64,000 bases of DNA. Origin: Escherichia phage Ge15. Shown here piece by piece: positions 35,804 through 36,898 of the stretch. The position numbers and the translations under genes were made by a program. The notes below the pieces were generated by a model. It saw only the letters and a list, made by a program, of their open reading frames with translations, ran no database searches and was not told the DNA's origin. Location of the stretch: the sequence record PP359696.1. One strand, written 5' to 3'. Position 1 is the first letter of the stretch. The number at the start of each line of letters is the position of its first letter.

Positions 35804-36258
35804 TGGAATTTAAAGACTTTTCAACGGGTCTTTATGTAGCAGCTAAGTTTTCAGAATTAACACTTGATGCGCTGGAAGAACTCCAGCGCTCTTTACGTGT
35901 TCCTAATCCAGTTCCTAGAGAAAAAATTCATTCGACCATATGTTATTCAAGAGTAAATGTTCCATATGTTCCATCAAGCGGAAGTTTTGAAGTAGCTTCT
36001 TCTGGACATTTAGAAGTATGGAAAACACAAGATGGATCGACTCTTGTACTTGTGCTAGATTCTGAATATCTGCGCTGTCGACACATGTATGCGCGGGCAC
36101 TAGGTGCTACACATGATTTTGATGATTACACACCGCATATAACATTGTCTTATAATGTTGGGCCCTTATCATTTAGCGGTGATGTACAAATTCCGGTCGT
36201 ATTAGATCGTGAATACAAAGAGCCTCTTAAACTCGATTGGGCAGATGATTTAAAATAA
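35803..36258 (+). CDS. 57B: gp57B
   Basis: 151 aa; synteny. Confidence 0.8.
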
Positions 36259-36270
36259 TTTCACAAAGTT

Positions 36271-36300
36271 GTTTACATACTGATGAGGTAGTGATACTAT
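36271..36300 (+). promoter_or_regulatory. T4-type early promoter (GTTTAC -35, GATACTAT -10) with inverted repeat flanking the -10
   Basis: gtttacatactgatgaggtagtgatactattacctcatca. Confidence 0.7.
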
Positions 36301-36330
36301 TACCTCATCAAAATTAATTAGGAAAATAAA

Positions 36331-36588
36331 ATGAAAACTTTCAAAGAGTTTGCTACAAAAACTACTATCACTGAATCTTCCCACGGTATGGAAGTAAAGC
36401 TTGGAATGGCTTTAGCTGAAGCTGAGCGTCTTTTCTCTCGTATTAAAGAACTTGCTGCTGCAGTCGATCCTTCATCTTTTAAAGGAGACCAAACTAAAGT
36501 TAAAGCACTTTTAGCATTATGCTCAGATGCAGGAGAAATTGCTAAAAATGGTTCTAAGATGAAGAAACGATTAGAAGATTTAAAATAA
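36331..36588 (+). CDS. Internal-protein-like ORF with capsid targeting sequence (MKTFKEF...TE)
   Basis: N-terminal CTS consensus; IPI locus position after 57B. Confidence 0.65.
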   Translation: MKTFKEFATKTTITESSHGMEVKLGMALAEAERLFSRIKELAAAVDPSSFKGDQTKVKALLALCSDAGEIAKNGSKMKKRLEDLK

Positions 36589-36600
36589 TTTCACAAAGTT

Positions 36601-36630
36601 GTTTACACAGGGTTTTAGTAGTGATACTAT
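36601..36630 (+). promoter_or_regulatory. T4-type early promoter
   Basis: gtttacacagggttttagtagtgatactat. Confidence 0.65.
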
Positions 36631-36664
36631 TACTCTATCAAAACAAAACCAAATGGAAATCAAA

Positions 36665-36898
36665 ATGAAAACTTTCAAAGAGTTTATCGCTGAATCTTCT
36701 GATGTAAAAGTTGAGTTTATTTACACCGGCAAGAAAGATAAAATGGGTGAAATGCCTCATGGAGTTCTTCGTGATGCATTAGATAATTTCGGTCAACTCG
36801 CCGCAGAAGATTACGGTGATAAAATTGTTGTTACTGGTCCTGCTGCAGTTATTGAAAAATGGGCAGCAGAAAATAAATCAATTTTTCGTAAAAAATAA
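36665..36898 (+). CDS. Internal-protein-like ORF with CTS (MKTFKEFIAE)
   Basis: Start trimmed to MKTFKEFIAESS; CTS consensus. Confidence 0.6.
   Translation: MKTFKEFIAESSDVKVEFIYTGKKDKMGEMPHGVLRDALDNFGQLAAEDYGDKIVVTGPAAVIEKWAAENKSIFRKK

Follow-up and report, generated by a model that had tools for sequence, protein, structure and literature searches.

Among the described phage systems close to the region analysed here are the PeSL (promoter-early stem-loop) cassettes of RB49/phi1 and other T4-like phages, in which a repeated module flanks small non-essential genes. In RB49/phi1, the PeSLs have promoter and terminator activity, and recombination between flanking PeSLs gives rise to mini-circles (Arbiol 2010). 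Passages of that paper state that PeSL-like sequences had already been seen by Repoila 1994 at the two highly variable internal-protein (IP) loci of T-even phages. The elements of these loci were regarded as analogues that use T4 early promoters and whose A/T-rich stems are weaker, and more than 30 IP variants were known (Arbiol 2010); the same statement on the IP-locus elements was made for phage PST (Comeau 2014). The IPs themselves are diverse defence proteins with only the targeting sequence in common (Rao and Black 2010). Carried in the phage head and entering the host together with the DNA, they can act ahead of all phage gene expression. Their loci are a classic hot spot of the phage arms race: Ip1, Ip2 and Ip3 of T4 each block a different GmrSD enzyme (PMC12373910, from 2025), and about 30 other IP families, including Ip5 and Ip6, remain open targets.

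We analysed a window of 64,000 nucleotides (the whole stretch taken from Escherichia phage Ge15, PP359696.1) and focused on two small open reading frames (ORFs) downstream of gene 57B, together with the repeated sequences around them. The ORFs lie in the first of the two hypervariable IP loci that this T2/T6-like Tequatrovirus possesses. Very probably, each of its IP genes is a cassette preceded by a promoter/stem-loop module, and the cassettes are exchanged by recombination between modules. The genes, the polymorphism of the locus and this recombination model have all been published, and the locus is an ordinary instance of a known system. It provides no new member and no new mechanism, and is a clean, typical case in line with what has been published. 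The order along the locus is acb1 (57B) - P1 - ip5 - P2 - ip6 - P3 - trna.4, with P1 to P3 denoting predicted promoters, and the genes are as follows.

34848-35561, plus strand: gene 1, deoxynucleoside monophosphate kinase (ORF listing)
35561-35803, plus strand: 57A (ORF listing)
35803-36258, plus strand: 57B, which is Acb1, an anti-CBASS (cyclic-oligonucleotide-based antiphage signalling system) phosphodiesterase (Pfam PF23474 Acb1, E 2.6e-60)
36331-36588, plus strand: ip5, 85 amino acids (aa) (phrog_3499, UniRef Ip5)
36665-36898, plus strand: ip6, 77 aa counted from the ATG (phrog_8111, UniRef Ip6)
36957-37142, plus strand: trna.4-like membrane protein of 61 aa, the conserved right flank of the IP locus (phrog_1692; annotated in T4 and GiZh)

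The gene order around Acb1 agrees with that of T4, T6 and GiZh. The initial annotation had assigned the two ORFs to the ipI position after 57B, and comparison with T4 confirmed that ip5 and ip6, between 57B/acb1 and trna.4, fill the slot that holds ipI in T4. As 57B is Acb1, a known anti-defence gene is located directly 5' of cassettes for predicted injected proteins. The last codons of Acb1 belong to the shared recombination module described below. The gp21 prohead protease (Peptidase_S77), the gp22 scaffold and gp23 are also encoded within the window.

Based on sequence comparison, the two ORFs are the named T-even internal proteins Ip5 and Ip6. The 85-aa ORF matched phrog_3499 ('internal head protein', E 1e-49) and the 77-aa ORF phrog_8111 ('internal virion protein', E about 1e-50). 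The UniRef relatives of the former include 'Ip5 internal head protein' of T2 and 'Ip5' of RB70 (Q38378), and those of the latter include 'Ip6 putative internal head protein' of VR20; VR7 likewise has a database entry named 'Ip6', and GenBank records name the same genes ipV/ipVI (GiZh, PST) or Ip5/Ip6 (JB75). They had been taken for novel leader-bearing proteins in the initial annotation, a claim that these names overturn. The names Ip5 and Ip6 were reportedly given by Repoila et al. in 1994 (EMBO J 13:4181). No Pfam family scored above threshold for either protein.

A search with the entire 761-bp stretch found it in 156 phage records, at 97.4-99.7% identity among the 40 matches listed (including T6 and PST), and PST carries the ip5/ip6 locus at 98.7% identity. 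The Ip5 and Ip6 of T2, T6, RB70, PST, GiZh and other Tequatroviruses are the same proteins as here (Ip5 92-100% and Ip6 73-100% identical), in the same position and with the same flanking modules and 31-bp repeat. Searched by tblastn, mature Ip5 was found in 494 GenBank phage records, 268 at ≥90% identity and 226 at <60%, the RB69-like records having about 54% identity among the matches listed. Mature Ip6 was found in 230 records. With Ip6, a profile search of 1.84 billion representatives returned just 7 matches. The Ip6 family is thus narrow, and the search revealed no informative relative beyond it.

Each of the two proteins starts, as the initial annotation had recognized, with a capsid-targeting leader that carries an (I/L)-x-E cleavage motif and follows the pattern MK(T/S)(F/Y)(K/Q)EF...(I/L)-x-E.

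36331-36375, plus strand: ip5 leader, 15 aa, MKTFKEFATKTTITE
36665-36694, plus strand: ip6 leader, 10 aa, MKTFKEFIAE, the canonical form

The leader of T4 IPI, MKTFKEFTSTTTPVSTITE, has 19 aa and ends in ...STITE. T4 IPI is shortened from 95 to 76 residues on maturation (Rao and Black 2010), and cleavage therefore falls after ...ITE. The Ip5 leader, ending in ...TITE, is a shorter version of this extended leader and closely parallels it. Compared with the 80-aa Ip5 variants (P0015, L015), whose leader has 10 aa, the Ip5 leader contains an additional ATKTT at 36352-36366; with leaders of 15 and 10 aa in Ip5, and of 19 aa in the same style in T4 IPI, leader length is variable within one family. 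For ip6, an in-frame ATG is located four codons upstream (MEIK-MKTF..., 36653-36667), and many database entries have the resulting 81-aa form. That start would shift the targeting leader off the N-terminus, and the GGAAA preceding the ATG at 36665 favours the 77-aa form.

Comparison with T4 illustrates how different genes can stand behind the same flank. The interval from the end of acb1/57B to the ATG of T4 ipI aligned to the P1 region without mismatch, the sole irregularity being an additional A that precedes the ATG in T4. T4 ipI likewise begins with seven codons for MKTFKEF, after which a different gene follows, and T4 then carries the same ATTTCACAAAGTTGTTTACATA element as found here. That neither ORF is T4 IPI, as stated in the initial annotation, was supported by the lack of similarity of mature Ip5 and Ip6 to IPI. 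Indeed, mature Ip5, Ip6, IPI and the mature parts of two other leader-bearing ORFs of the window had no mutual similarity, and a PDB sequence search with Ip5 and Ip6 did not return IPI, or anything below E 0.7. Gene duplication was rejected as the origin of the tandem arrangement, because mature Ip5 and mature Ip6 lack similarity and only the promoter module and the leader are repeated.

The most evident repeat is the perfect 31-bp sequence GATTTAAAATAATTTCACAAAGTTGTTTACA, whose two copies were confirmed at the positions reported earlier. The copies and the predicted promoters are listed below.

36247-36277, no strand: 31-bp direct repeat copy 1, with DLK-stop, A/T tract and -35 (GTTTACA)
36577-36607, no strand: 31-bp direct repeat copy 2, with the DLK-stop of ip5, A/T tract and -35
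36272-36300, plus strand: predicted promoter P1 of T4 early type, TTTACA, 17-nt spacer, TG-n-TACTAT (9/12 match in the promoter scan, TG present)
36602-36630, plus strand: predicted promoter P2, TTTACA, 17-nt spacer, TG-n-TACTAT (promoter scan)
36900-36928, plus strand: predicted promoter P3, TTTACT, 17-nt spacer, TG-n-TACTAT, in the diverged third module (65% copy) 5' of trna.4

Exactly two perfect copies, 330 bp apart, were detected in the window, where no third copy was found at ≤3 mismatches, and a match to the 31-mer occurred in none of 100 dinucleotide-preserving shuffles. The title of the initial annotation had both ORFs bracketed by the repeat, which is correct for ip5 only; ip6 is flanked by copy 2 on one side and by the third, diverged module on the other. 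The repeat does fuse a gene 3' end to a -35 as had been noted, with Acb1 ending in ...DDLK-TAA and ip5 in ...EDLK-TAA, each followed by TTTACA.

The 31-mer forms the left end of a module of approximately 70-95 bp with three copies at the locus. It was returned by the repeat finder as the perfect core of a 71-nt family, with copies starting at 36243, 36573 and 36871 (100, 85 and 65% identity; spacing 330 and 298 nt). In order, the module comprises the last codons of the upstream gene, the A/T tract, the GTTTACA -35, a 17-nt spacer, a TG-extended -10 (TACTAT), a Shine-Dalgarno sequence and the ATG. The Shine-Dalgarno sequence, the ATG and the first seven codons of ip5 and ip6 form another repeated element, 31 nt long (94% identity). 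A generic phage-wide motif was rejected, as the 16-nt core GTAGTGATACTATTAC occurs within the window only at the three module sites.

The predicted -10 hexamers are located at 36295-36300, 36625-36630 and 36923-36928. The promoter scan recovered module copies 1 and 2, and the record of phage JB75 annotates two promoters at positions equivalent to P1 and P2. The A/T tract, -35 and -10 of PeSL-like modules can be recognized at all of P1 to P3, whose activity is a prediction, and P3 is the putative promoter of trna.4. In GenBank phages, the 31-mer was found at 707 places in 472 records, so about 235 records have two copies.

A stem-loop was predicted at the -10 of each module, again as in PeSL-like modules.

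36281-36310, plus strand: hairpin 1, a stem of 13 bp, its arms overlapping the -10 hexamer and its loop inside the -10
36609-36636, plus strand: hairpin 2, an interrupted stem across the -10
36910-36937, plus strand: hairpin 3, a 12-bp stem across the -10

Hairpin 1 had a folding energy of -17.4 kcal/mol (z -4.6), with 0 of 200 shuffles as good, and hairpin 3 one of -16.4 kcal/mol (z -3.2). Hairpin 2 (-12.3 kcal/mol, z -3.2) is weaker than its version in T6 and L034, a locus of the survey described below (-16.5 kcal/mol). The feature was general among 59 unique promoter-like modules at this locus, 78% of which had z below -2 (median -3.6), with stems of quite different sequences in the same position. 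In an ungapped pairing-register analysis of the 46 modules with a 17-nt spacer, 71% of the cells were paired in the register centred on the -10, compared with ≤58% in any other register. Several pair types were present per column, and the observed pairing exceeded that of all 1000 partner shuffles, a figure that the kinship of the sequences inflates somewhat. The covariation of the stems suggests that the hairpin is a selected feature.

To follow the modules across relatives, we surveyed 36 IMG/VR loci encoding Acb1 relatives (given below by their L numbers), plus T6, GiZh, T4 and T2. In the IMG/VR loci the interval from acb1 to trna.4 contains 0-4 leader-bearing ORFs, drawn from 17 unrelated families in many combinations. 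The most direct comparison is with L034, whose Acb1 is identical to that of the window and which has the order acb1-ip6-trna.4 with a single copy of the 31-mer. When positions 36278-36607 were removed in silico, the window aligned to L034 free of gaps (554/571 identities), and the undeleted window differed by one gap of exactly 330 nt. The allele of L034 is, by its sequence, what a crossover between the repeat copies would be expected to produce, or the substrate of the reverse insertion.

Replacement and mosaicism were also evident. T4, L033 and T2 have other genes behind the same modules, and in T2 ip5 is followed by a different IP behind a chimera of P2-left and P1-right. An alignment of 11 modules revealed a mosaic structure, in which three parts surround the invariant core GTGATACTATTAC, namely a left segment (two types), a left hairpin arm (three types) and a right arm with the 5' untranslated region (three types), in six combinations; the T4 trna.4 promoter, for example, is composed of P2-left and P3-right. 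In the chimeric modules of T2 and other genomes, the crossover falls either at the -35 or in the invariant core of the -10, and hairpin pairing is lost in chimeras (z above -1.1), as is expected for recent crossovers inside the core. As in other PeSL-like modules, breakpoints are therefore associated with variable genes, the evidence being the 17 families, the mosaics, the deletion allele and the T2 chimera. Alignment across T-even phages thus bore out the proposed role of the repeated promoter modules as genuine substrates of recombination. The more specific proposal of cassette insertion or duplication has to be divided: the deletion allele, gene replacement and chimeras agree with it, and what has been duplicated is the promoter module only, the genes being unrelated.

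A further exchange is indicated in the leader of ip6. Relative to L034, ip6 has seven differences, six of which fall within 24 nt of the leader (36675-36698), and at all six sites the base in ip6 is that of the phage's own ip5 leader. Outside this patch, one difference from T6/L034 was found in the remaining 200 nt. The leader sequence MKTFKEFIAESS is shared with GiZh, where T6 and L034 read MKTYQEFIAETA. The pattern points to a short patch of recombination or gene conversion matching the ip5 leader.

The left edge of the repeat also looks like a junction in sequence comparisons. The RB69 homologue of Ip5 (RB69ORF127c; L044 1438-1719, AY303349.1 64922-65203) ends in ...RLEKYISGASEK, a different and longer C-terminus, and the RB69-type tblastn alignments listed all stop at residue 67 of mature Ip5, the E of RLE, where the repeat starts. 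The DLK-stop is thus not part of the conserved Ip5 body, and it is shared with the end of Acb1. Three unrelated proteins, Acb1, Ip5 and a 90-aa IP family, end in -LK-stop, coded TTAAAAT(A/G)A next to the -35 (36247-36258, 36577-36588 and L026 4790-4801). The module may supply the last three residues (DLK-stop) of the upstream gene, with the cassette boundary inside the coding sequence, which would explain the shared -LK ends of Acb1, Ip5 and the other IP family. The 13-nt segment TTTCACAAAGTTG is missing from the distant genome L015 at the end of acb1 as well as at that of ip5, and each of these junctions runs from DLK-stop directly into a -35; the two copies therefore change together within a genome.

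Other arrangements were also found in these genomes. In 20 of the 36 IMG/VR loci (L004-L038, around position 4453), the stop TGA of acb1 overlaps the start of the first leader-bearing ORF (TTAAAATGAAAAC; one GTG variant) with no promoter between them, an alternative and apparently translationally coupled layout. Of the leader, L032 retains no more than a truncated relic (MKTFK-stop). The Ip5-family gene of RB69 (genus Mosigvirus) is located in the other IP locus, between lysozyme e and denV, and IP families have therefore moved between the two loci.

Taken as a mechanism, each gene would be a self-contained cassette preceded by a promoter/stem-loop module, and homologous recombination among co-infecting relatives would insert, delete and swap the cassettes. 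The exchanges would occur in three zones that the modules have in common: at the 31-mer with its -35, in the -10 core GTGATACTATTAC, and where the leader-coding sequence begins (ATGAAAAC...TTT). Excision between the repeats is predicted to release a circle of 330 bp.

Two results weigh against this reading of the locus. The scan detected no T run 3' of the stems and no intrinsic-terminator-like site at the locus, so an attenuator role would be borrowed only from the RB49 PeSL experiments. In addition, the invariance of the 31-mer in 472 records could reflect promoter selection as much as recombination. Under this alternative, the identity of the 31 bp would be kept purely by functional selection on an UP-like A/T tract, the -35 of a strong early promoter and C-terminal codons: the 31-mer covers the expected -35 and UP-element positions, and the spacer just 3' of it varies among close relatives (CATACTG, CACGTTG, CATGCTG). 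Selection as the sole cause is nevertheless quite improbable, as a natural allele differs by exactly one repeat unit, chimeric modules have crossovers at the -35 and the -10 core, the homology of Ip5 with RB69 stops at the repeat boundary, and the loss of TTTCACAAAGTTG at both junctions of L015 points to concerted change. The two causes, selection and recombination, do not rule each other out.

The recombination model places the locus close to the PeSL cassettes. Both systems share the A/T-rich tract, -35, stem-loop, Shine-Dalgarno sequence and ATG, and the stem-loop either overlaps the -10 or stands in the interval separating it from the -35. The modules of both systems flank small non-essential genes, have crossovers inside the module and predict excision of a gene together with one chimeric module. 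The IP-locus elements, which the PeSL authors themselves regard as analogues rather than homologues, have stems that lack polyG/polyC (Arbiol 2010), and terminator activity and mini-circles were shown for the RB49/phi1 PeSLs only. Anti-CRISPR or anti-defence hot spots and morons likewise offer a fixed slot for swappable, small, unrelated genes with their own promoters, here next to an anti-defence gene (acb1). Unlike those, the IP products share a packaging leader for delivery as protein with the DNA, and IP genes are exchanged by homologous recombination between conserved flanks, not by illegitimate insertion.

The mature, injected form of T4 IPI, IPI*, inhibits the GmrSD type IV restriction enzyme of E. 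coli CT596. By analogy with the T4 proteins, we infer that Ip5 and Ip6 are packaged, cleaved and injected. The leader would place them in the scaffolding core of the prohead, gp21 would cut after the leader glutamate (ITE15 in Ip5, IAE10 in Ip6), and mature proteins of about 7.5 kDa would then enter the host with the DNA. Predicted mature Ip5 has 70 aa and is basic (isoelectric point (pI) 9.2, 13 K+R), and predicted mature Ip6 has 67 aa and is neutral (pI 6.5). The AlphaFold2 (AF2) model of Ip5 is an antiparallel helical hairpin (pLDDT, predicted local distance difference test, 71), for which structure comparison gave no match with E below 0.4. Ip6 was modelled as a ferredoxin-like alpha/beta domain of beta-alpha-beta-beta-alpha-beta topology (pLDDT 80.8) that returned generic matches only.

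The analogy with Ip1, Ip2 and Ip3 of T4 makes it reasonably probable that Ip5 and Ip6 neutralise a specific host defence as well. Several results weigh against this reading of the two proteins. Neither protein has sequence or fold similarity to the characterised inhibitor IPI*, and their models gave no link to IPI* or any known inhibitor and no functional lead. When ip4-10 were assayed against further GmrSD variants, no reproducible interaction was detected, and T2 and T6 are restricted by the ECOR21 and ECOR17 GmrSDs (PMC12373910); both phages carry ip5, and T6 also carries ip6. In the literature consulted, we found no direct evidence of virion presence or N-terminal processing of Ip5 or Ip6, and the ip genes are not mentioned in a T4 time-course omics paper. 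Moreover, ip5 and ip6 have early-type promoters, but prohead assembly is a late event. Upstream of the two genes, the nearest late-promoter motif on the plus strand, TATAAATA, is located at 35198-35205 inside gene 1, and none was found between 57A and trna.4; late supply would therefore need read-through across the hairpins.

Among the alternatives, the most serious, although we regard it as unlikely, is that Ip5 and Ip6 are packaged with no specific defence target and have generic DNA-associated roles, such as charge neutralisation, condensation or help in ejection, with the locus varying because such roles are loosely constrained. The basic charge of mature Ip5 would fit such roles, as would the approximately 1000 internal-protein molecules in T4 heads, with lysines contacting DNA (Rao and Black 2010), and the negative screen of ip4-10 against GmrSD variants. 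The neutral mature Ip6, a compact alpha/beta domain, does not fit them. In addition, each of the three T4 IPs proved to be a specific inhibitor when the appropriate host had been identified, the varying presence and absence of 17 unrelated families is a pattern typically seen at arms-race loci, and the IP locus adjoins the anti-CBASS gene acb1.

If a specific defence is the target, Ip5 and/or Ip6 may inhibit one that lies outside the screened GmrSD variants, possibly one other than type IV restriction. This is a tentative suggestion that we consider slightly more doubtful still than a generic role. If true, the 'pre-loaded protein' counter-defence of T-even phages would extend to a new class of immunity. 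Least probable of all, and hardly credible, is that Ip5 and Ip6 are unpackaged, ordinary early cytoplasmic proteins with leaders left as recombination relics: the purely early-type promoters 5' of the genes and the relic in L032 fit this idea, but the full leader with (I/L)-x-E is conserved across the 17 unrelated families at the locus, and T4 IPI, with an upstream intergenic region that matches P1 apart from one extra A, is packaged and processed.

The second IP locus of the window contains two further leader-bearing ORFs. The ORF at 45598-45915 encodes a 105-aa protein (MKTYKEFIAE..., phrog_3966, function unassigned in PHROG) and that at 45932-46405 a 157-aa protein (MKTYQEFITE..., phrog_3155, 'internal virion protein'); their mature parts do not resemble Ip5, Ip6 or T4 IPI. 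A cluster of 10 tRNA genes extends over 37912-39502 (Gln, Leu, Gly, Ser, Thr, Met(CAT), Tyr, Asn, His and Arg), and no tRNA-Pro was found in it. A GIY-YIG homing-endonuclease ORF (38156-38806) lies between tRNA-Gly and tRNA-Ser, at the position that tRNA-Pro has in T4, and segB is located elsewhere in T4 and T6.

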